This document shows, piece by piece, positions 1-8,235 of a stretch of 8,235 bases of DNA (position 1 is its first letter; the number at the start of each line of letters is the position of its first letter). This DNA is from a virus (Duplodnaviria > Heunggongvirae > Uroviricota > Caudoviricetes). The translations under genes were made by a program, and so were the position numbers. Below the pieces are notes generated by a model. The model saw only the letters and a list, made by a program, of their open reading frames with translations, did not search any database and had not been told where the DNA came from. The stretch is taken from positions 1 through 8,235 of the IMG/VR virus record IMGVR_UViG_2778261058_000004; one strand, written 5' to 3'.

Positions 1-277
1 ACCCGGTGTTATCTCGAGGAAAGGATAGCCTCGCCATACTTACCGCCGCGCCATTCCGCGGATTGCCACAACCGGAAGCGTACGGTCGAATTAAATTTAA
101 CGACAAGCCTCATAGGTGAAGGCCTTCGCCGTACGCTTTCGTGTTATGCCCTGACTTTTCAGGGATATATCCTTTCAGTAAACTGTCAGTGCCGGATTCT
201 TATCCGTGTCCGGCGCACGACAACACGCTGTCACGTGTGGTCTCCATTCTCAACCAGTAACCTCAATGGAGGATAAA

Positions 278-616
278 ATGCCAAACAAGCCAATACATCC
301 GCTTATTGAAAAACAGATTGAATGCCTGGTTAATCAACTCAGGCAATCAGGGTTATTAAAAACTCATTCAGAGCCAGGGCTCACAGAATCGGCATTCGAC
401 GATAAATTAAATAATGCGCTTTATAATGGCATCATTGATTACAATCGTGGTGCTGGTCGCCGTGGACTGCTGGCACCGTCCTGTAATTCCAGTCAATCCA
501 GAGCGGATAGTGTTCAGCATAAATATAGTTATACACATCCAGGTTGTATTTGCGGTCTGTCCTTAGCAGGTCGCAAATACACGCCGCAGCTTCCAGGGCA
601 GCAGCTTTGTTGCTGA
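278..616 (+). CDS. Questionable ORF (113 aa from ATG 278); its 3' half overlaps the convergent 232-aa gene antisense
   Basis: GGAGG at 268-272 sits 5 nt before ATG 278. The N-terminal 50 residues look protein-like (MPNKPIHPLIEKQIECLVNQLRQSGLLKTHSEPGLTESAFDDKLNNALYNG) and use common E. coli codons, but the C-terminal half is Cys/Ser/Gly/Pro/Arg-rich and overlaps 432..616 of the minus-strand gene. The track ORF starts at GTG 206. Confidence 0.25.
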   Translation: MPNKPIHPLIEKQIECLVNQLRQSGLLKTHSEPGLTESAFDDKLNNALYNGIIDYNRGAGRRGLLAPSCNSSQSRADSVQHKYSYTHPGCICGLSLAGRKYTPQLPGQQLCC

Positions 617-1130
617 ATAACCATGTGGCAACATTCCGCTCCAACGCTCCTGCGGGACCAGATACCACGAAGGAGCCGTTGGTGTTGCCATCAAATACAT
701 CCATTTCCAGATTTTTACGTAATGCCTGGTGAATTCTTGCCAGATATTCAGTCGGAATTTCGCCACGAATTCGGATAAGGTTGTCATAAACAAACATGTT
801 CCCCGCATACGCATATGGCGATTTTTCTTTCTTGCTTTTTAAACCAGCATCATGAGCAAGCTGATCAATTTCTTCTTCCGTTGGTTTCGTATTGATGTTT
901 TGCACTGTCGCTTCTGCAATTTTCTTTGCCGAATTCTCTTCGTAACCATTGTTCGGGACTGAGTTAGAATACAGTCCGGTAAAAGAATTGCGGACATTAT
1001 TTGATAAATTTCTGATGAACACCTTATCTACTAAGATCATTGGGTTCCGCGCCAGTTGCGAGCGAATCACATCAGCGGCCATTTCCTGTATTGGTAGTGG
1101 TAAATCTTTAAATTCCATCGTCAGCCTCAT
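432..1130 (-). CDS. Hypothetical protein, 232 aa, unrecognised family; second gene of the leftward early operon
   Basis: Long minus-strand ORF. Its ATG at 1130 overlaps the TGA stop of the upstream 50-aa gene (TGATG, translational coupling). A second in-frame ATG at 1118 has GAGG 7 nt upstream. No motif recognised by eye. Confidence 0.6.
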   Translation of the reverse strand: MRLTMEFKDLPLPIQEMAADVIRSQLARNPMILVDKVFIRNLSNNVRNSFTGLYSNSVPNNGYEENSAKKIAEATVQNINTKPTEEEIDQLAHDAGLKSKKEKSPYAYAGNMFVYDNLIRIRGEIPTEYLARIHQALRKNLEMDVFDGNTNGSFVVSGPAGALERNVATWLFSNKAAALEAAACICDLLRTDRKYNLDVYNYIYAEHYPLWIDWNYRTVPAVHGDQHHDCNQ

Positions 1131-1282
1131 CAGTCAGTGTTTCTTGCTAACCAGCGACGCGCGCCAGATTCGGTTTTAAACGTTTTGCTTTTGGTATACG
1201 TCATCGCGGTGAACGTGCCGTCCTGGTTTGGGAACACGCCGTATACCAGAGATTCGTTGTTGCCAAGATCGATAGTATCCAT
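1130..1282 (-). CDS. Small protein, 50 aa, first gene of the leftward operon; possibly DUF1391 (YdfA/YdaF-like), family assignment from memory only
   Basis: ATG at 1282 is preceded by GAGGT about 5 nt upstream (minus sense aaatGAGGTcaacATG). Product MDTIDLGNNESLVYGVFPNQDGTFTAMTYTKSKTFKTESGARRWLARNTD. The track ORF (68 aa from 1336) has no Shine-Dalgarno (SD) sequence. Being first after the operator/promoter matches the position of ydfA in the Qin dicB operon. Confidence 0.5.
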   Translation of the reverse strand: MDTIDLGNNESLVYGVFPNQDGTFTAMTYTKSKTFKTESGARRWLARNTD

Positions 1283-1459
1283 GTTGACCTCATTTCCCCT
1301 TAACGCCGGGGTAGCGGAACAAAAAACCTGCTGCATAGTTAAAGTTGAACCCTGCCGTCATGTTCTTACGCCTCGGGCTGGCTACTTAACCCCTGACCAC
1401 TGCCTGGTAACTCGAAGTATTGCCCTGCGTTCTGTGGGGCGGGGTGGGGTGGTGGAAAT

Positions 1460-1489
1460 AATCTACAATTAAAAACTGTTTTGTGTCAA
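1460..1489 (-). promoter_or_regulatory. Putative sigma70 promoter for the leftward operon (pL-like): -35 TTGACA, 18-bp spacer, -10 TAGATT
   Basis: Minus strand reads TTGACA (plus 1484-1489), 18 nt, TAGATT (plus 1460-1465). The -35 lies inside the palindromic operator-like site. The predicted leader to ATG 1282 is about 170 nt. Confidence 0.45.
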
Positions 1490-1501
1490 CAGTTTTTAAT
1501 T
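1467..1501. promoter_or_regulatory. Operator-like perfect inverted repeat (OL-like): AATTAAAAACTGTT-N7-AACAGTTTTTAATT, core AAAAACTGT-N9-ACAGTTTTT
   Basis: 14-bp perfect arms read directly from the sequence. The same 9-bp half-site and 9-bp spacing recur at 2506-2532 in the repressor/cro intergenic region. Confidence 0.5.
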
Positions 1502-1513
1502 GTTGGGGTGGGT

Positions 1514-1538
1514 AAAAAAACTCCCTCGAATGAGGGAG
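1514..1538 (-). terminator. Rho-independent terminator of the repressor-antitoxin-toxin operon
   Basis: Minus strand carries stem CTCCCTC, loop ATTC, stem GAGGGAG, then a run of 7 T, starting about 18 nt after the toxin stop codon at 1556-1558. Confidence 0.65.
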
Positions 1539-1555
1539 TATGAAAATTGTTCAGT

Positions 1556-1843
1556 TCAGATAGGGAAGGGAAATTGTCGGCGGGCATGCACAATATTTGC
1601 AATTTCAATGCTTGAAGCTGCTACTCGGTACAAAACGATATAATTAGGGTGAACCACAATTTCCCGCAAACCGGATACTCGATCACTTGGCGGATATAGA
1701 TATGGATGCTCGGAGAGGGCTAAAACAGACGTTTCAATACGTATTTTTAGTCTGCGTGCTGCAGGAATATTTTCCTTAGCAATATAGGCTACGATCTGAC
1801 GCAAATCATCGCGAGCAGATGGTAGCCATAAAATGGGTAACAT
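1556..1843 (-). CDS. parE2: ParE/RelE-superfamily toxin, 95 aa (ParE2-like)
   Basis: Size and sequence pattern typical of ParE toxins (…LYRV…IEIANIVHARR…). Its ATG overlaps the stop of the upstream 63-aa gene. Third gene of a repressor/antitoxin/toxin operon, as in the paaR2-paaA2-parE2 locus of E. coli O157 prophages (from memory). Confidence 0.8.
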   Translation of the reverse strand: MLPILWLPSARDDLRQIVAYIAKENIPAARRLKIRIETSVLALSEHPYLYPPSDRVSGLREIVVHPNYIVLYRVAASSIEIANIVHARRQFPFPI

Positions 1844-2034
1844 TACTCGCTCCTGTTAGTTACAGCAATTTGAGCAATAAGATTTTCTATTTCAGCCATT
1901 ACCTCGTCATGTGGAATTGAGGGACGAGGGTCTGCAAGGCTTGACGCCACTTTAGCGCGCAACCATTCGTTGTAACTGTTTTCTTGTTCGGTAGTTTCGA
2001 ATTCTGAAACTATCGGAGAAAGGGCTGTACTCAT
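1843..2034 (-). CDS. paaA2: Small antitoxin, 63 aa (PaaA2-like, no DNA-binding domain)
   Basis: GAGGAG sits about 6 nt before ATG 2034. Acidic 63-aa product MSTALSPIVSEFETTEQENSYNEWLRAKV… immediately upstream of, and coupled to, the ParE-like toxin. Confidence 0.7.
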   Translation of the reverse strand: MSTALSPIVSEFETTEQENSYNEWLRAKVASSLADPRPSIPHDEVMAEIENLIAQIAVTNRSE

Positions 2035-2061
2035 GGCATAACTCCTCTTCTTGTACAGTGG

Positions 2062-2463
2062 TCACGCCCGGCGGCTTTTTTGTGCCGCCAACCACCGGGC
2101 AATGGTTTCTTCCATTGATTTTTTCTTGTCTTTGATTTCTTGAAGCATTTTTTCTTGGTCTTCCTCTGGAAACGCACTAAAAGCCTGGAGCAGTTCGCGT
2201 TGGCGAGGACCAATTTTCATCGTGTCAGGGGTGAAAATTTGCTCCCCCTCTTCAGGAGGCAATAAAAACCAATGCAATGGATGCCCTGTAACCTCAACCA
2301 GTTTATCCAAACTTGAGGCTTTAGGTGTAGCCTTACCGCTGACCCATTGTTGAACAGTTTGTTGTGTCACACCAATTCTACGGGCCAGCTCAGCCTGGCT
2401 CCATCCAGTTTCCTGAAGAAGCTTGCTGATTCTGTACATAGATACTTCTAGAGCGTTCATCAT
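2062..2463 (-). CDS. paaR2: DicA/PaaR2-like HTH (XRE-family) repressor, 133 aa; likely the prophage cI-equivalent and TA operon regulator
   Basis: N-terminal helix-turn-helix (WSQAELARRIGVTQQTVQQWVSG) and a C-terminal helical segment (RQRELLQAFSAFPEEDQEKM) resembling DicA architecture, with no S24 peptidase domain. Divergent from the cro-like gene. The first ATG has no SD and lies 7 nt after a TAAAAT -10 (possibly leaderless); ATG 2439 is an alternative start. Confidence 0.8.
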   Translation of the reverse strand: MMNALEVSMYRISKLLQETGWSQAELARRIGVTQQTVQQWVSGKATPKASSLDKLVEVTGHPLHWFLLPPEEGEQIFTPDTMKIGPRQRELLQAFSAFPEEDQEKMLQEIKDKKKSMEETIARWLAAQKSRRA

Positions 2464-2500
2464 TATTCAATTTTACAGGTAAATACTGTTAAAAGCATCA

Positions 2501-2537
2501 CAATAAAAAACTGTTGATCGCGTACAGTTTTTTATTG
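2501..2537. promoter_or_regulatory. Operator-like perfect inverted repeat (OR-like): CAATAAAAAACTGT-N9-ACAGTTTTTTATTG
   Basis: 14-bp perfect arms between the divergent repressor and cro-like genes, sharing the AAAAACTGT-N9-ACAGTTTTT core with 1471-1497. An extra half-site-like ACTGTT lies at 2485-2490. Confidence 0.5.
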
Positions 2538-2572
2538 TAGGCTTTGCCTGTAGTTTTTTAGAGGAGGGCAAA

Positions 2573-2845
2573 ATGCTAGATAGCACTCGCGAAAAAATTA
2601 GGCAGAAATACACTCAAGCTGAAATAGGTCGTTATATGGGGGTCGCTCAACAGACTGTTTGGCAATGGTTTAGCTTTGGTGTTCCCCCAAAGCAGGTAAT
2701 TCCGTTATGTCAGCTAATGAAGTGGGAAGTTACCCCGCATGAAATTCGCCCTGATATTTATCCTAACCCAACCGACGGGCTGCCTTGTGGAAATAAGTGT
2801 ATGGCGAATGAATCTCTGGCGGTGAACAATGAAAATCACCCCTGA
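2573..2845 (+). CDS. ydaS: Cro/YdaS-like small HTH regulator, 90 aa
   Basis: Strong SD GAGGAGGG at 2561-2568. HTH-like segment (IGRYMGVAQQTVWQWFSFG). Divergent from the repressor and followed by the YdaT-like gene, as in Rac and CP-933P (from memory). Confidence 0.75.
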   Translation: MLDSTREKIRQKYTQAEIGRYMGVAQQTVWQWFSFGVPPKQVIPLCQLMKWEVTPHEIRPDIYPNPTDGLPCGNKCMANESLAVNNENHP

Positions 2846-3350
2846 ACAGGTTCGTGAGGCTCTGGATGCTTGGGTATGCAGACCAGGAATGACACAGGAA
2901 CAGGCGACGATATTAATCACAGAAGCCTTCTGGGCCCTGAAAGAACGCCCGAACATCGATGTTCAACGTGTCACGTTTGATGATGGCGCGGTTGAGCAAC
3001 GGGCGCTTGGCGTTAACCGGGTGAAGATATTCGAACGCTGGAAAGCGATCGACACCAGGGATAAGCGGGAAAAATTCACGGCGTTGATTCCGGCAATCAT
3101 GGAGGCTATCCGGATAAGTGATTTCAGGTTGTATTGTGAAATTACTGATGGAAAAAGCATTACGTACATGCTCGCCGGGTTAAATAAAGAATATGGCGAT
3201 GTGGTGGAGTCCGGTCTGCTTTTGGCAGATCCCGCTGTTGTGGAGCGCGAGACTGACGAGCTTATAGAAAAAGCTATTGCTTTCAAGCATGCGTATCGTC
3301 AGCAATATCAACAAAAAGCCGGATGGAATTATGAGTCTTCTTTTTGCTGA
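2829..3350 (+). CDS. ydaT: YdaT-like protein, 173 aa (CII-equivalent position)
   Basis: Overlaps the cro-like gene by 17 nt. Synteny cro-like / this gene / replication initiator; the KREKFTALIPAIMEAI segment recalls Rac YdaT. Assignment is from memory. Confidence 0.7.
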   Translation: MKITPEQVREALDAWVCRPGMTQEQATILITEAFWALKERPNIDVQRVTFDDGAVEQRALGVNRVKIFERWKAIDTRDKREKFTALIPAIMEAIRISDFRLYCEITDGKSITYMLAGLNKEYGDVVESGLLLADPAVVERETDELIEKAIAFKHAYRQQYQQKAGWNYESSFC

Positions 3351-4296
3351 ACGCCCACTGGTTATTAACACTCAGCTGGCGATGAAAATAGGTCTGAACG
3401 AAGCCATTGTGTTACAGCAGCTGCATTACTGGTTGAGAGATACCGGTTCCGGCATGGAATGTGATGGTGTTCGCTGGATTTATAACACAACAGAACAATG
3501 GCTGGAACAGTTCCCGTTCTGGTCAGAGTCAACGTTAAAACGCGCATTTGCAAGTCTGAAAACGCTGGGGCTTTTGCGTTGCGAAAAGCTCAACAAATCA
3601 AAGCGTGATATGACTAATTTTTACACGATTAATTACGAGAGCGAGCTTTTAGATGGTGGCAAAGTGAGCGAATCCATCAGGTCAAAATGCGCCGCTCCAT
3701 CAGGTCAAAATGACACGATGGAAGAGGCCAAAATGGCACGCTCCATTGGTTCAAAACGACCCAATGTCATCGGGTCAAAATGGCCTGATGATCTTACAGA
3801 GAATACAACAGAGATTACTACAGAGAATAAAAACACTTCTCGTCCGGAAGCTTCGCAACCGGACATGCAGACGGCTGAACAGGATTTTTTAAACCGACAT
3901 CCTGACGCGGTTGTGTTCAGTGCGAAAAAACGCCAGTGGGGCAGCCAGGAAGATTTGGCGTGTGCGCAGTGGATCTGGGGACGAATCGTGAGTCTTTACG
4001 AGCAGGCTGCCAGCGATGATGGCGAAATCATGCGACCGAAAGAACCAAACTGGACTGCATGGGCCAATGATGTGCGCACAATGCGGATGCTGGATGGCAG
4101 AACTCACAGACAAATTTGCGAAATGTTTGGTCGGGCACAGCGGGATCCATTCTGGGTAAAAAACGTCATGAGCCCGTCAAAGCTTCGCGAAAAATGGGAT
4201 GAGCTGGTTATTCGTCTGGGGCGTTCGCCTGTACAGCGTTGTGTAAATCATATTTCTGAACCGGACACCGAAATTCCGCCGGGATTCAGGGGGTAA
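3331..4296 (+). CDS. Replication initiator (lambda O-like / YdaU-like), about 321 aa from ATG 3331
   Basis: Position between the CII-like and DnaC-like genes, and an iteron array plus AT-rich tract inside the coding sequence. The start is uncertain: the track ORF begins at TTG 3277 and ATG 3289 is also in frame; 3331 was chosen for the MSLLFAERPLV N-terminus. Confidence 0.75.
   Translation: MSLLFAERPLVINTQLAMKIGLNEAIVLQQLHYWLRDTGSGMECDGVRWIYNTTEQWLEQFPFWSESTLKRAFASLKTLGLLRCEKLNKSKRDMTNFYTINYESELLDGGKVSESIRSKCAAPSGQNDTMEEAKMARSIGSKRPNVIGSKWPDDLTENTTEITTENKNTSRPEASQPDMQTAEQDFLNRHPDAVVFSAKKRQWGSQEDLACAQWIWGRIVSLYEQAASDDGEIMRPKEPNWTAWANDVRTMRMLDGRTHRQICEMFGRAQRDPFWVKNVMSPSKLREKWDELVIRLGRSPVQRCVNHISEPDTEIPPGFRG
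3673..3835. repeat. Putative origin of replication: 4-5 iterons (consensus near TCCATCAGGTCAAAATG) at 23-bp periodicity, then an AT-rich tract with ACAGAGA(A/T)TA repeats
   Basis: Copies at 3673-3689 and 3696-3712 are identical; degenerate copies at about 3719-3735, 3742-3758 and 3767-3783. The AT-rich segment at about 3790-3835 has three ACAGAGAATA/ACAGAGATTA repeats. Confidence 0.6.
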
Positions 4297-4302
4297 CGAA
4301 GC

Positions 4303-5049
4303 ATGAAAAATATTGCGACAGGCGGTGTTCTTGAACGCATCCGTAAGCTGGCTCCGCAGCATGTAACCGCGCCATACCGAACAGTGGACGAGTGGCGCGA
4401 GTGGCAACTTGCAGAAGGCCAGAAGCGTTGCGAGGAGATCAACCGCCAGAATCGTCAGTTGTGGGTGGAAAAAATTCTGAATCGCTCCGGCATCCAGCCG
4501 TTGCACCGCAAGTGCTCGTTTGCGAATTACCAGGTGCAGAATGACGGCCAGCGATACGCGTTGAGCCAGGCGAAATCCATCGCCGATGAACTGATGTCCG
4601 GATGCACAAATTTCGCATTCAGCGGAAAACCTGGTACCGGGAAAAACCACTTAGCGGCGGCTATCGGGAATCGCCTGCTGAAAGATGGCCAGACAGTGAT
4701 TGTGGTTACCGTGGCTGATGTTATGAGTGCTCTACACGCCAGCTATGACGACGGGCAATCAGGCGAAAAATTTTTGCGGGAACTGTGCGAAGTGGATCTG
4801 CTGGTTCTTGATGAAATTGGCATTCAGCGCGAGACGAAAAACGAGCAGGTGGTACTGCACCAGATTGTTGATCGCCGGACAGCGTCGATGCGCAGCGTGG
4901 GAATGTTGACAAACTTGAACTATGAGGCCATGAAAACGCTGCTCGGCGAGCGGATTATGGATCGCATGACCATGAACGGCGGGCGATGGGTGAGTTTTAA
5001 CTGGGAGAGCTGGCGTTCAAATGTCAGCTATTTGAGGGTTGTTAAGTAA
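4303..5049 (+). CDS. DnaC-like helicase loader (AAA+ ATPase; YdaV-like), 248 aa
   Basis: Walker A FSGKPGTGKNHLAAAIG and Walker B DLLVLDEIG. Similar to E. coli DnaC along the whole length (SGIQPLHRKCSFANY…, MLTNLNYEAMKTLLGERIMDRM…). Confidence 0.9.
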   Translation: MKNIATGGVLERIRKLAPQHVTAPYRTVDEWREWQLAEGQKRCEEINRQNRQLWVEKILNRSGIQPLHRKCSFANYQVQNDGQRYALSQAKSIADELMSGCTNFAFSGKPGTGKNHLAAAIGNRLLKDGQTVIVVTVADVMSALHASYDDGQSGEKFLRELCEVDLLVLDEIGIQRETKNEQVVLHQIVDRRTASMRSVGMLTNLNYEAMKTLLGERIMDRMTMNGGRWVSFNWESWRSNVSYLRVVK

Positions 5050-5063
5050 TTTCATGAGGGCTT

Positions 5064-5459
5064 ATGGCAAAACCTTTTACACCCGAACAGCGGGAAGAGC
5101 TGAAGGCACGAATTATCGGGTTGGTACGCAAAAATGGACGCATGACGATGTCGCAACTGGAGAGAGCGACGGGAGCTGGCTGGCATTCGGTCCGACGCAG
5201 CCTTGTGGATGTACTGGCTTGTGGTGATTTATACATGTCCGGGGAATACGGTGTTTTTGCATCAGAGCAGGCGTATCGTGAATGGCGTAAGACACCGGAG
5301 AAAACAACTGACCAGACACTGATTCGAAAGTTACCAGACGGAGAAATACGCCGCTACGACAGACACCTGAACATAATCTGTCGCGAGTGCCGGAAGAGTG
5401 AGGTTATGCAGCGAGTGTTGGCGTTTTATCAGGGTAATTTTCAGGAGGTGATGGCGTGA
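5064..5459 (+). CDS. Hypothetical phage protein, 131 aa, possible winged-helix DNA-binding fold
   Basis: ATG 5064 follows GAGGG. Protein-like composition. Its stop TGA at 5457-5459 overlaps GTG 5456 of the next gene. Confidence 0.6.
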   Translation: MAKPFTPEQREELKARIIGLVRKNGRMTMSQLERATGAGWHSVRRSLVDVLACGDLYMSGEYGVFASEQAYREWRKTPEKTTDQTLIRKLPDGEIRRYDRHLNIICRECRKSEVMQRVLAFYQGNFQEVMA

Positions 5460-5755
5460 GGGTGAGAGTTTATATTGCCGGTCCAATGACCGGGTATAAA
5501 AATTTCAACCGTGAGGCGTTCCACAATGCGGAAGAGGAACTGAAACGGGAAGGGCATACAGTCTTAAACCCGGCAGTACTTCCGGACGGGCTGACACAGC
5601 CACACTACATGGATATTTGCATGGCAATGATTCGTTGTGTGGATGCGATTTACATGCTGAAAGGCTGGCAGCGGTCGGCAGGCGCTAAGGCAGAGCTGGC
5701 GCTGGCGGAGAAGCTGGGGCATGCAGTTATTTTCCAGGAGGCAAACAGTGAATAA
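5456..5755 (+). CDS. DUF4406-like protein (nucleoside 2-deoxyribosyltransferase-like fold), 99 aa
   Basis: AGGAGG at 5443-5448 sits 7 nt before GTG 5456. N-terminal VYIAGPMTG…FN…F motif and conserved GW…S.GA.AE segment, as recalled for DUF4406. Confidence 0.65.
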   Translation: MRVRVYIAGPMTGYKNFNREAFHNAEEELKREGHTVLNPAVLPDGLTQPHYMDICMAMIRCVDAIYMLKGWQRSAGAKAELALAEKLGHAVIFQEANSE

Positions 5756-6428
5756 CCAATGGCGACCAGATGTTTGCCCTATAACCGGACGTGCATTTTT
5801 CATGTGGATTGAGCATCCGAAATTGGGCAATGTGCCGACGTATGGCGGCCCATTAGACAGTTACACCATTCCAACAAGGGACAGCGATGGTGAGTTTTCG
5901 TGTGAGCGTTACGATCATGATTTCGGTGGCTGGGTAGAAAGCGAATGTCTTGGGTTATATCTGATTGATGATAAAGAACAATGCAGAGTCTACGAACTGG
6001 AGGAACGCATTGCAGAGCTGGAGACTAATCTTGCTGCACTTGCGGCGGAGAATGCGGGGCTGAATAAATTTATCGCACAGAGTTGCTACGTGTTTGATGG
6101 CGAGCAGGATGAACTATCTGATGCGTATATCTGCGCAATAGACGGAAGGATGCCGCAAACCCCAGCCACCGATGCTTTCCTGGCTGAAGTACGTGCGGAA
6201 GCACGCAACGAGGGGATTAACTATACCGCCAGCCGTCTTGCTGCTGCGTTCAATCACGGATTTATCAATAAGTCTTTACGTGAAGTTTTCGACGTTACGC
6301 GCATGATTCTGTCAGCGAAAGAAGAGTTGGCTAATGAACCGCACCCGATTGATGGTCTGTCCGGTGAATATGCGGAGAAATCCCTTGAAGAATGGGCGGA
6401 ACAGATTCGCAAAGGAGACAACCAGTGA
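5748..6428 (+). CDS. Hypothetical phage protein, about 226 aa, with a central coiled-coil; Ea22-like is a guess only
   Basis: AGGAGG at 5736-5741 sits 6 nt before in-frame GTG 5748, which overlaps the end of the DUF4406 gene. Heptad-like segment ELEERIAELETNLAALAAENAGLNKF. The track start ATG 5721 is an alternative. Confidence 0.55.
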   Translation: MNNQWRPDVCPITGRAFFMWIEHPKLGNVPTYGGPLDSYTIPTRDSDGEFSCERYDHDFGGWVESECLGLYLIDDKEQCRVYELEERIAELETNLAALAAENAGLNKFIAQSCYVFDGEQDELSDAYICAIDGRMPQTPATDAFLAEVRAEARNEGINYTASRLAAAFNHGFINKSLREVFDVTRMILSAKEELANEPHPIDGLSGEYAEKSLEEWAEQIRKGDNQ

Positions 6429-6679
6429 GTGAGTCAAAATGCCAAATTAATGGCAACAAGATAGAACCGTGTACGGCTCTGGCAAAATCCCTTGAGCATG
6501 ATGCTGAATACACGACGCGAAAAGGTCTGCTGATATACAAAATCTGGAATGAGAGTTTAACTCGCGGCCCTGATTTGGTGATGTTGCGTTCCGGTGAATT
6601 TTCTAAATCACCAGTGCGGGTTTCATTTTGTCCGTTCTGTGGTGAAAGTCTGAAAACGTGGGAGAACAGAAATGAATGA
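6425..6679 (+). CDS. Hypothetical small protein, 84 aa, with Cys pairs (C-x11-C … CPFC), possible zinc ribbon
   Basis: GTG 6425 overlaps the upstream stop (GTGA), with AGGAG at 6413-6417. The track start ATG 6392 is in frame but lies inside the previous gene. Confidence 0.5.
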   Translation: MSESKCQINGNKIEPCTALAKSLEHDAEYTTRKGLLIYKIWNESLTRGPDLVMLRSGEFSKSPVRVSFCPFCGESLKTWENRNE

Positions 6680-6983
6680 AATTAAAGAAATACCAGTAGT
6701 ACGTGATGAATATGGCTGCTGGACGCATCCTGAATATGAAAAATTCTGTGATGGTAGAGAACATATTTCAACGGAAGAGTTTAACGCATGGATGGAGGAA
6801 AATAATCTTCAATGGACCATCAGAACTATGGATGAAGATGATTTTAATCTGGACGCAGATGGTCCCGATATTGCCGCTTGGGAACCAGAGCGACCAGAGG
6901 GCGAAGGCTGGTTTGTTGGCTCTATTCATGACACTGAAGATGGTCCTGTTTGTGTATGGCTGAGAAATAAGGCTGAAGCATAA
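6672..6983 (+). CDS. Hypothetical acidic protein, 103 aa
   Basis: ATG 6672 overlaps the previous stop (ATGAATGA), with GGGAG about 8 nt upstream. Strongly acidic (DEDDFNLDADGPDIAAWEPERPEGEGW). Confidence 0.6.
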   Translation: MNEIKEIPVVRDEYGCWTHPEYEKFCDGREHISTEEFNAWMEENNLQWTIRTMDEDDFNLDADGPDIAAWEPERPEGEGWFVGSIHDTEDGPVCVWLRNKAEA

Positions 6984-7112
6984 AGGCGATAAATCACCTG
7001 GCAACAAAACACTGAAAAATTTAAATCAGAAGTGAATTTTATTAAATCCTTAACCGGAGGGATTCCTGCACCCTCAGAACATCAGGAGGCCGCCTGAAAG
7101 GGCGGTAATGAA

Positions 7113-7295
7113 ATGCGAAAGTTCAGAATAATAATTGAAACAGGAATGGCTGGTGGAGATTTTGAGGATGTATTCGAAGTGGATGATGGCGCGACACCAG
7201 ATGAAATACAGGACGAAGCAAAAGAAATTTTCTTTAACTACTGCAATTACTCATATCACGAAATAAAAGATGAGGAGGAAGAACAACATGGCTGA
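7113..7295 (+). CDS. Small highly acidic protein, 60 aa
   Basis: ATG 7113 follows AAAGGG. About 20 Asp/Glu against about 5 Lys/Arg, with a C-terminal DEEEEQ. Overlaps the next gene by 8 nt. Confidence 0.5.
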   Translation: MRKFRIIIETGMAGGDFEDVFEVDDGATPDEIQDEAKEIFFNYCNYSYHEIKDEEEEQHG

Positions 7296-7464
7296 TTTTG
7301 GTTCAACTAAATATAACGCCAGTTTTGAAGAATGGCATGAACTGTTAATGGACTATGCAGAGTTACGCGGTGGAAGTGCTGCTGATGCTGAAGCATGGCG
7401 TGATGATTATGAAGCAGGGAAAACACCGGTCGAAGCATATTGTGATGAGTGGGGCGATGAATGA
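7288..7464 (+). CDS. Small acidic protein, 58 aa from ATG 7288
   Basis: GAGGAGG at 7272-7278 sits 9 nt before ATG 7288. The track start ATG 7270 has no SD. Product MADFGSTKYNASFEEWHELLMDYAELRGGSAADAEAWRDDYEAGKTPVEAYCDEWGDE. Confidence 0.5.
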   Translation: MADFGSTKYNASFEEWHELLMDYAELRGGSAADAEAWRDDYEAGKTPVEAYCDEWGDE

Positions 7465-7516
7465 GCGGGATTAATTATCAGGAAAGGTTTGAAAAATATC
7501 AAGAAGGGGCTACGGC

Positions 7517-7861
7517 ATGACGACTTTTACCAGAGAGCAGTTAATAGCTCACGCAGAGGAGACGATTGAGGCACAGAGACTGTGCATACCGGGTACAATC
7601 GACCATGACATCATCCGCACATATAAGATGGATATTGCTGTTCTGGAAATTGCACTGGCATCACTGGCAGCGGAGTCAGCCGGTAAATTGCATGAATACA
7701 AACCAGTGGGGTACCAGCGTCTGGTCGACGAGTTAACCATGCTGGTAAAGCAGTTAACCTGGCAACTGAGGAAAGTGAAGCCGGACTGTAAATTGCCGGA
7801 TAAGGCGATGGACTACCTGAAGCGGAACGAACTGATAAGCGCGGAGGATGTTTTGCGATGA
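7517..7861 (+). CDS. Hypothetical phage protein, 114 aa
   Basis: GAAGGGG at 7503-7509 sits 7 nt before ATG 7517. Protein-like, mostly helical-looking composition. Its stop overlaps the start of the next small ORF (ATGA). Confidence 0.6.
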
Positions 7862-7941
7862 CCCGGCCTGAAGCATTCACAACGGTAGGAATTGCGATGG
7901 CGGTGGCGCTGGTGGTGTATTCGATTTGCCGCTGGGGATAA
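7858..7941 (+). CDS. Putative small hydrophobic (single transmembrane) peptide, 27 aa
   Basis: ATG 7858 overlaps the upstream stop (ATGA), with GGAGG at 7843-7847. Product [27 protein letters not shown]. Too short for the 60-aa track. Confidence 0.35.
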
Positions 7942-7948
7942 AAACGGT

Positions 7949-7976
7949 TTGCGGGAAAAGGAGAGTTAAGTAGAAT
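7949..7976 (+). promoter_or_regulatory. Candidate promoter for the hok transcript: -35 TTGCGG, 16-bp spacer, -10 TAGAAT
   Basis: Hexamers read from the sequence. The predicted transcript start near 7984 would give a leader of about 170 nt before hok, the scale expected for hok-family mRNAs. Confidence 0.3.
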
Positions 7977-7990
7977 TGCTGCGGGTGCTT

Positions 7991-8031
7991 GAGGCTATCT
8001 GCCTCAGGCATGAACACCAAAAGGCAGATAG
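7991..8031 (+). promoter_or_regulatory. Structured hok leader: CTATCTGCC (7995-8003) pairs with GGCAGATAG (8023-8031), with nested GAGGC/GCCTC and TGCCT-c-AGGCA hairpins
   Basis: Inverted repeats seen directly. hok-family mRNAs are known for extensive 5' secondary structure that controls translation. Confidence 0.4.
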
Positions 8032-8095
8032 AGAAAAGCCCCAGTTAACATTACGCGTCCGGCAAGACGCTTAACATTAATCTGAGGCATTCTGT

Positions 8096-8155
8096 ATGCG
8101 ACACATAGAGATTAGCCTCTTACGGACCGAAAGGTCAAGGAGAAGCAGGCTATGA
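8096..8155 (+). CDS. Leader mini-ORF (19 codons, MRHIEISLLRTERSRRSRL) ending in ATGA overlap with the hok start; mok-like coupling element
   Basis: GAGG at 8084-8087 sits 8 nt before ATG 8096. Its stop TGA at 8153-8155 overlaps the hok ATG at 8152-8154. Confidence 0.3.
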   Translation: MRHIEISLLRTERSRRSRL

Positions 8156-8235
8156 AGCAGCAAAAGGCGATGTTAATCGTCCTGATCGTCATCTGTTTAA
8201 CCGTCATAGTGACGGCACTGGTAACGAGGAAAGAC
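8152..8235 (+). CDS. hok: Hok/Gef-family type I toxin, N-terminal 28 codons only (hokD/relF-like); continues beyond the window
   Basis: AAGGAG at 8137-8142 sits 9 nt before the ATG. Translation MKQQKAMLIVLIVICLTVIVTALVTRKD matches the transmembrane N-terminus of Hok/RelF proteins as recalled. Confidence 0.85.
   Translation, partial: MKQQKAMLIVLIVICLTVIVTALVTRKD

Follow-up and report, generated by a model that had tools for sequence, protein, structure and literature searches.

What do the two large palindromes that flank the repressor and toxin-antitoxin (TA) genes of IMG/VR record IMGVR_UViG_2778261058_000004, a member of the Caudoviricetes, offer to a regulator: two extended single sites or several smaller ones? 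The stretch analyzed here (positions 1 to 8,235 of that record; 8,235 nucleotides [nt], referred to as the window) carries a leftward operon for a CI-like repressor, a PaaA-family antitoxin, and a ParE-family toxin. A reading of the sequence alone had described the palindromes, built on the half-sites AAAAACTGT and ACAGTTTTT at a distance of 9 nt, as the operators of a lambdoid immunity region. The position of the palindromes, their overlap with promoters, and the organization of related prophages all support that layout. Judged from sequence comparison, however, the palindromes are very probably the promoter-proximal O1 and O2 pairs of a right and a left operator region (OR and OL), and the unit within each pair is a 15-bp site like that of the phage 434 repressor. 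The sequence-only reading was therefore right in functional outline but wrong in the binding unit and the number of sites.

Both palindromes bracket the repressor/TA operon as had been described, within two bases of the positions first noted (1467-1501 and 2501-2537) and slightly longer. The first (1465-1503) consists of ACAATTAAAAACTGTT and AACAGTTTTTAATTGT, 16-bp arms separated by 7 nt, and the second (2500-2538) of ACAATAAAAAACTGT and ACAGTTTTTTATTGT, 15-bp arms separated by 9 nt; the arms are 100% complementary in both. The pattern AAAAACTGT-N9-ACAGTTTTT matches exactly twice in the window, the count does not change when up to three mismatches are allowed, and none of 200 dinucleotide-preserving shuffles contained any match. 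The palindromes are thus a non-chance feature. The second one lies, as proposed, between the divergent repressor and cro-like genes, which start at 2463 (minus strand) and 2573 (plus strand), respectively, and the first overlaps the -35 of a leftward promoter, with TTGACA at its center. Every arm amounts to a 15-mer whose two ends mirror each other, ACA(A/G)-N7-(C/T)TGT, and each palindrome is made of two such predicted operators around a -35 hexamer. The OL and OR arms differ from each other at one position, position 6 (T versus A), and this difference is mirrored in both arms.

The motif ACAR-N7-YTGT occurs five times in the 8,235 bases of the window, and all five copies are at OR or OL; shuffled sequences held 0.57 copies on average, and 0 of 200 reached five. 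Three copies fall in the 109-bp gap between the repressor and cro-like genes (2464-2572), namely, the predicted operators OR3 (ACAGGTAAATACTGT, 2475-2489), OR2 (ACAATAAAAAACTGT, 2500-2514), and OR1 (ACAGTTTTTTATTGT, 2524-2538), whose starts are 25 and 24 nt apart. OR3 was absent from the earlier account, which had a single site at OR; it has no palindromic partner, including at the N9 spacing. The motif is repeated at a second, leftward locus (1460-1503), where OL1 (ACAATTAAAAACTGT, 1465-1479) and OL2 (ACAGTTTTTAATTGT, 1489-1503) stand around TTGACA-18-TAGATT. The position of OL1 is kept in relatives, and OL2 is its exact mirror. We sought a third OL operator beside OL2 and found only the operon terminator, which takes up the next 24 nt.

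All five predicted operators are interleaved with promoter elements. The leftward promoter (PL-like; minus strand, 1460-1489) has TTGACA at 1489-1484, an 18-nt spacer, and TAGATT at 1465-1460, scores 10 of 12 in the promoter scan, and reads into an operon headed by a ydfA-like DUF1391 gene. OL1 lies between its -10 and -35, and OL2 abuts the upstream side of its -35; the TTGAC and TAGAT adjoining these operators are kept in all lineages that we compared. The rightward promoter (PR-like; plus strand, 2514-2543) has TTGATC at 2514-2519, an 18-nt spacer that holds OR1, and TAGGCT at 2538-2543, and would read into the cro/ydaS-like and ydaT-like genes. PR is a putative promoter, proposed from its base-for-base alignment with PL and from the TTGA(T/C) and TAnnnn beside the operators, again kept in all lineages. 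A third, PRM-like promoter for the repressor, read from the sequence, has the -10 TAAAAT (minus strand, 2475-2470) and a poor -35, ATGCTT (2498-2493). OR3 lies over the -10 and spacer of this promoter, and OR2 abuts its weak -35 on one side and reaches the PR -35 on the other. Because the PRM -10 is only 6 nt ahead of the repressor ATG, with no Shine-Dalgarno sequence between them, the repressor mRNA is predicted to be leaderless; the order of -10, 6 to 7 nt, and ATG is kept in relatives. The registers are exact: in PL and in PR, the last T of the distal operator is also the first base of the -35 hexamer, which fills the gap between the two operators, and every -10 (TAGATT of PL, TAGGCT of PR, and TAAAAT of PRM) starts at the last T of an operator.

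Related prophages separate the 15-mer from the larger palindrome. We compared loci that encode relatives of the repressor, 49 from viral contigs and seven others (numbered loci below), using a search pattern fixed at N7; a profile search of contigs with the repressor alignment, with one genome per species, returned Arsenophonus only. Lineages with a recognition helix of the form xQQT(V/I)QQW are found in E. coli, Salmonella-like (82% repressor identity), Klebsiella/Raoultella-like (69%), Pluralibacter (70%), and Morganella (68%) sequences, in a lineage at 50%, and in Arsenophonus (49%), and the identities spanned also include 92%. They carry ACAR-N7-YTGT at matching places, with three copies in the repressor-cro gap in most lineages (two in Morganella and Arsenophonus) starting 23 to 25 nt apart and two more 15-mers around a TTGAC downstream; OR3 is degenerate in the Morganella locus L056. 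The N7 within each 15-mer is constant across lineages. The gap between operators ranges from 8 to 10 nt overall, being 8 to 9 nt in distant relatives; a 10-nt gap is seen at the OL of Sakai Sp4 and of 8 of 43 close relatives. The central 7 bp of the 15-mers drift yet remain A/T, and the large palindrome decays, for example in L045 (ACAAGAGTTAACTGT / ACAGTTATTTCTTGT) and in the OL pair of L043, where mirror identity is just 9 of 15. In Serratia ureilytica (L054), ACTG/CAGT replaces ACAG/CTGT at both inner half-sites of OR1 and OR2 (2426-2464), giving the perfect palindrome CAGTTGATAATCAACTG, and the same variant recurs in one downstream site (3631-3645).

In a tabulation of 38 distinct operators, the three outermost bases at each end (positions 1 to 3 and 13 to 15) never vary. 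The next base inward is a purine (A or G) at position 4 and a pyrimidine (C or T) at position 12; 33 of the operators have T at position 5, 29 have A at position 11, and the center holds A and T only. Twelve distinct OR cores from 40 close relatives have no variable position among the 45 within operators, compared with 8 of the 19 in the spacers (Fisher P = 1.7e-5). A single central base of OR3 is changed in four further loci. In the ~38 kb of Sakai prophage Sp4 that we analyzed, ACAR-N7-YTGT matches at the five operators alone. Because operator positions are invariant, the gap is variable, and the palindrome decays in relatives, the conserved unit in these alignments is the 15-mer and not AAAAACTGT-N9-ACAGTTTTT. 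The N9 of the unit first proposed corresponds to the spacer between two predicted operators, which holds the -35.

The same comparison bears on the possibility that each palindrome is one operator, with the half-sites AAAAACTGT and ACAGTTTTT 9 bp apart and bound by a single dimer or tetramer unit in a LexA-like geometry. Such a site would account for the perfect axial symmetry, including the A-tracts, for the mirror identity of O1 and O2 at 15 of 15 positions in all 40 OR pairs of close relatives, and for the mirrored change shared by the inner half-sites of Serratia L054. It would not account for a gap that is 10 nt at OL of Sakai Sp4 and of 8 of 43 close relatives and 8 to 9 nt in distant ones. 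It also leaves out the best-conserved bases, those of the outer ACA(A/G)T ends, and OR3, which has the 15-mer form without an N9 partner. The palindrome decays in relatives at 82 to 49% while the 15-mers persist, and the centers of CTGT and ACAG are 13 bp apart, whereas ~11 bp, close to one helical turn, separates the half-sites of a 15-mer, as in helix-turn-helix dimers of the 434 type. We regard the single-operator arrangement as improbable.

A LexA (SOS) box reads CTGT-N8-ACAG, and the CTGT-N9-ACAG core of the palindromes had been described as one base pair longer in spacing than such a box. The likeness arises only from two abutting operators, which lie 9 nt apart in the window but 10 nt apart in some close relatives, and it is not a lead. 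A host factor, LexA or another regulator recognizing CTGT/ACAG, might be imagined to bind these sites in place of the prophage repressor, given that the ends resemble those of an SOS box. The spacing is N9 (or N10) and not N8, however, and the motif changes with the helices of the prophage repressor and Cro and with immunity type, which is unexpected for a conserved host factor; we give this explanation almost no credence.

The palindromes might alternatively act as nucleic acid structures, whether RNA hairpins serving as a backup terminator or stabilizer behind the TA operon, or DNA cruciforms or recombination hot spots at the borders of the exchangeable immunity module. Stable hairpins are predicted (-17.6 kcal/mol when OL is folded by itself, z = -7.0), the terminator scan flags 1503-1465, and homology between heteroimmune prophages breaks right at OL/PL. 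Yet the stem is A/U-rich, with 3 G-C pairs in 16, its tail (AGAUUAUUUC) has no U-run, and a canonical terminator is already present 17 nt upstream. This intrinsic terminator of the repressor-paaA-parE operon (minus strand, 1520-1539; ACTCCCTC-ATTC-GAGGGAGT and then T7) was identified by the terminator scan together with its predicted hairpin. Both predicted transcription starts lie downstream of the OR palindrome, which would therefore not be transcribed, and relatives lose the hairpin potential but keep the 15-mers and the promoter hexamers. A structural role thus appears very unlikely. An Rfam scan of the whole window matched the sok RNA only and had no match at the operators.

The putative reader of the 15-mers is the CI-like repressor of 133 amino acids (aa) (minus strand, 2062-2463; Pfam HTH_3, E value of 1.7e-13). 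Its N-terminal helix-turn-helix has the recognition helix TQQTVQQW (residues 33 to 40), compared with TQQSIEQL in phage 434, and its closest solved relative is the DNA-binding domain of the 434 repressor (2r63_A, E value of 2.1e-5; 1per_L, 5.2e-5). Over the segment QAELAxxxGxTQQxxxQ, the two proteins align without gaps, and the equivalents of Gln17, Gln28, Gln29, and Gln33 are kept. Operators of 434 are 14 bp long; their outer 4+4 bases are conserved, the outer 5+5 are contacted, and the center is read indirectly, with A-tracts favored. The 434 reference operator, ACAATNNNNATTGT, has the form ACAAT-N4-ATTGT. In the 434 co-crystals of Anderson, Ptashne and Harrison from 1987 and of Aggarwal and colleagues from 1988, the Gln residues reportedly read ACAA. 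The repressor is modular (window 2062-2463; L062 4660-5031), joining a 434-like N-terminal domain to a C-terminal part like those of PaaR2 and DicA. The earlier label of a DicA/PaaR2-like repressor holds for overall architecture (DicA at 52.6 bits, PaaR2 at 42% identity) but not for the DNA-binding domain, which is 434-like and not PaaR2-like.

The opposing protein is encoded immediately across the gap. The Cro-like, YdaS-family protein (90 aa; plus strand, 2573-2845; Pfam YdaS_toxin, E value of 8e-10) has the helix AQQTVWQW, which shares QQ..W with the repressor, and the two proteins plausibly read the same half-site; its comparison with the PDB gave a weak Cro match alone (E value of 0.2). 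Natural variants of both helices accompany variant operators. In L058, K or R stands at the Gln33 equivalent (SQQTVQRW in the repressor and RQQNVSRW in Cro), and the operators read ACAC-N7-GTGT (1316-1353). L048, with AQQSVQKW and PQQVVSRW, likewise has K or R there and ACAC-N7-GTTA in most copies (2417-2480 and 3456-3493), and both loci keep the 15-mers around TTGACA. The co-variation between this helix residue and operator position 4 (A or G with Q, C with K or R) is suggestive only.

Several points weigh against reading the palindromes as O1 and O2 pairs of 434-like sites in a lambdoid switch. The operator here is 15 bp long with 5 central bp, compared with 14 bp and 4 central bp in 434, which makes the structural parallel with 434 an imperfect one; the 14-bp form ACAA-N6-TTGT was not found among the window sites, all of which are 15 bp and read ACAR-N7-YTGT. 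The constancy of N7 is partly built into a search with fixed N7, although the expected positions were still recovered in nearly all lineages. R also occurs in the helix of a third lineage, L057, which has no clear preference for C at position 4, and the co-variation therefore holds in two of three lineages. Serratia L054 (76% repressor identity) is a partial exception, with two OR sites that have the variant half-site ACTG/CAGT. PR fits the promoter consensus poorly (TTGATC/TAGGCT) and had no match in the promoter scan. The sites, their enrichment, their overlap with promoter elements, their conservation, and their co-variation with the recognition helices are observed, but every functional step for this repressor, including binding, filling order, PRM activation from OR2, cooperativity, and OL-OR looping via the PaaR2-like C-terminal domain, is inferred. 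Finally, O1 and O2 are exact mirror images, even at bases that the protein presumably does not contact, in all 40 OR pairs and 35 of 43 OL pairs of close relatives, and independent dimer sites alone do not explain this symmetry.

The mirror symmetry could be accounted for if O1 and O2 formed one symmetric 39-bp unit. A higher-order oligomer, formed through the C-terminal domain that the repressor shares with octameric PaaR2, would then grip both 15-mers at once, with the -35 wrapped between them, and link OL to OR around the TA operon. This arrangement would explain the mirroring of bases that are presumably not contacted, the mirrored position 6 (T versus A), and the double change in Serratia, in which both inner half-sites have one mirrored change to ACTG/CAGT. 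If true, the -35 would sit between mirrored A-tracts within a symmetric unit, and OL and OR, 1,035 bp apart, would close a repression loop enclosing the TA operon. We consider it possible but rather unlikely. Hairpin-templated correction of a quasi-palindrome, a nonselective alternative, could equally have produced the mirror symmetry.

With the palindromes read as O1 and O2 pairs of 434-like sites, a lambdoid switch can be proposed. Each site, ACA(A/G)T-N5-A(C/T)TGT, would probably be bound by one dimer of the 133-aa repressor through its 434-like helix-turn-helix, and the Cro-like protein would use the same sites with different affinities. In a lysogen, the repressor would occupy O1 and O2 at both loci and cover PR and PL from -35 to -10. 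Closure of PR would silence cro/ydaS, ydaT, and the replication genes, and closure of PL would silence the operon that runs from ydfA to dicB-type genes. The weak PRM would still transcribe the repressor and the PaaA-ParE pair, and the abutment of OR2 on the PRM -35 suggests that PRM may be activated from OR2. OR3 would serve negative autoregulation and would likely be the first target of Cro. Since PaaR2 is reported to be octameric (PMC8630535), the PaaR2-like C-terminal domain may confer cooperativity and OL-OR looping across 1,035 bp.

Downstream of the repressor on the minus strand are the PaaA-family antitoxin (63 aa; 1843-2034; Pfam PaaA2, E value of 1.1e-21; PaaA2 structure 3zbe, 4.4e-22) and the ParE-family toxin (95 aa; 1556-1843; Pfam ParE_toxin, 6.6e-16; ParE2 structure 5cw7_B, 1.2e-37). 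The PL operon begins, after a leader of ~170 nt from the PL palindrome, with the ydfA-like DUF1391 gene (minus strand, 1130-1282; Pfam DUF1391, 1.1e-28; probable start MDTIDLG), which is a 153-nt coding sequence in the L001 annotation. Rightward, the Cro-like gene is followed by a gene for a YdaT-family protein (173 aa; plus strand, 2829-3350; Pfam YdaT_toxin, 1.5e-5) and then by replication genes, also on the plus strand. A stretch 99.2% identical is found in an E. coli SC407 prophage adjoining ompW, in which the leftward operon extends to dicB, exonuclease, xis, and int.

Some further features of the window deserve mention in their own right. A 232-aa open reading frame (ORF) downstream of ydfA in the PL operon (432-1130, minus strand) has no Pfam match; it stands where L001 and Sakai Sp4 have short ORFs, and a 136-aa ORF (206-616, plus strand) overlaps it. 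The YdaT-family protein is longer here (173 aa) than its Sakai Sp4 and Sp12 counterparts (141 aa). Inside a gene for a 339-aa replication-initiator-like protein, four 23-nt direct repeats (CATCAGGTCAAAATG...) lie at 3675-3790, with starts 23, 46, and 24 nt apart, and look like origin iterons; compare the lambda origin within gene O. A sok antisense RNA was found at 7983-8154 (Rfam RF01794, 106 bits), next to a hok-like ORF that begins at 8152 (MKQQKAMLIVLIVICLTVIVTALVTRKD...) and extends past the window end at 8235. The two are a second TA system of the prophage, of type I. The PL leader (1290-1455, minus strand; CCCCGCCCCACAGAACGCAGGG...GGCAGTGGTCAGGGGTTAAGTAGCCAGCCCGAGGCGTA...) hardly differs among three heteroimmune prophage types. 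Of 5,426 E. coli genomes searched, 4,395 gave some match to the query, and in most of these the leader was matched.

This type of immunity is common, with at least 80% of the 1.8-kb module carried by 508 of 5,426 complete E. coli genomes, including the prophage Sp4 of O157:H7 Sakai. A tblastn search with the repressor found no match of at least 60% identity among 50,697 phage records; therefore, no characterized phage among those records shares this immunity. A literature search for six operator strings returned no relevant paper, its one match being an unrelated mouse study, and we found no description in the literature of operators for this immunity type. The layout itself is textbook and has already been demonstrated experimentally in a sister prophage, and the textbook picture is unchanged. 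The operators are nonetheless unusually clean, being 15-mers with invariant ends, and their natural variants hint at a residue-to-base rule, although this is suggestive only. The system is convenient for studying the control that a prophage switch exerts over an embedded ParE toxin operon and over a dicB-type operon for a cell division inhibitor, and the induction of a repressor that has no autocleavage domain. It is equally convenient for predicting cross-immunity among the many lambdoid prophages of pathogenic E. coli.

The sister prophage is CP-933P, and for the relation to the CHARACTERISED system we took PaaR2 of CP-933P from Sakai Sp12 (ECs_2279, with the start MQKKE as published). CP-933P resembles the window in having repressor-paaA-parE leftward and ydaS-ydaT rightward, a second promoter/operator just downstream of parE and before the same conserved leader, and a -10 that is 6 nt from the repressor ATG (GATAAT-TACCAC-ATG for PaaR2). 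The PaaR2 mRNA was demonstrated experimentally to be leaderless (Jurenas et al. 2021, mBio, PMC8630535). ParE and PaaA of the window are close paralogues of those in CP-933P. The repressors align by BLASTP over residues 37 to 133 only, with 42% identity over the C-terminal ~98 aa, of which the last ~45 are very similar. The N-terminal domain of PaaR2 is unrelated to that of the window repressor and has no Pfam HTH_3 match.

The operators differ accordingly between the two prophages. CP-933P has four 18-bp inverted repeats with the half-site GTTTAGTAA at OR and three operators at OL (PMC8630535), whereas the window has 15-mers of the form ACAR-N7-YTGT, with three copies at OR and two at OL. In Sakai Sp12, GTTTAGT repeats occur in the intergenic region and after parE2, in agreement with the published account; the OR and OL sequences of the window contain none. 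PaaR2 and YdaS footprint the intergenic region of CP-933P and repress PL933P about 100-fold, and YdaT is its CII analogue (PMC8630535). The YdaT box TTGATT-N6-AATCAA has no match in the window with up to two mismatches; therefore, any CII-like activation site here must differ from the published one.

Aligned PL regions of the window, Sakai Sp4, Sakai Sp12, and L003 are near-identical from CCCCGCCCCACAGAACGC onward and fully divergent just upstream. Because the leader is shared and the PL -10 hexamers of the window and CP-933P are at equal distances from it, the OL/PL of the window is, by alignment, the positional homologue of the CP-933P region containing PL933P. The L003 and CP-933P modules are joined to the same PL leader, with homology breaking exactly at the promoter/operator. 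The heteroimmune prophages L003, CP-933P, L048, and L058 each have their own repeat at equivalent positions and a different repressor helix or domain. The window and CP-933P carry exchangeable immunity modules of the classic kind, which combine the same C-terminal domain and flanks with different DNA-binding domains and operators.

The repressor of the window is 98% identical to ECs_1069 of Sakai prophage Sp4. A paaR2-paaA2-parE2 homologue has been stated to lie on CP-933M (Jurenas et al., PMC8630535), and we took the Sakai Sp4 module, by elimination, as the likely CP-933M homologue and as system 1 of Hallez et al. 2010. The best NCBIfam match of the repressor is DicA (NF007257), over the full length at 52.6 bits; since this is under the cutoff of 101, the repressor is not a DicA orthologue. 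As in the DicA/dicB region of Qin, ydfA/DUF1391 heads the leftward operon, which reaches dicB in near-identical prophages. Unlike in Qin, the repressor and the PL operon have a TA pair and a terminator between them.

Phage 434 shares with the window the half-site ACAAT, the conserved outer 4+4 bases, a position 5 that is presumably contacted here as in 434, an A/T-rich center probably read indirectly in both, and a tripartite OR. It differs, apart from operator length, in having three sites at OL where the window has two, in the LexA-like autocleavage domain that the window repressor lacks, and in its Cro, which in the window is of the YdaS family. Pfam matches in the 133-aa repressor were of the helix-turn-helix type only, with no Peptidase_S24 match, and because the S24 domain is absent, induction is predicted to proceed by a route other than LexA-like autocleavage.

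As in lambda, back-to-back PR and PRM share three operators 24 to 25 bp apart center to center, and a second cluster lies at PL ~1 kb away. If PRM starts at 2463, as predicted, OR3, OR2, and OR1 are centered near -19, -44, and -68, close to the geometry of the lambda operators, which are 17 bp long. The window departs from lambda in the sequence and length of its operators and in the repressor fold beyond the helix-turn-helix, and it carries a TA pair in the position of rexAB.

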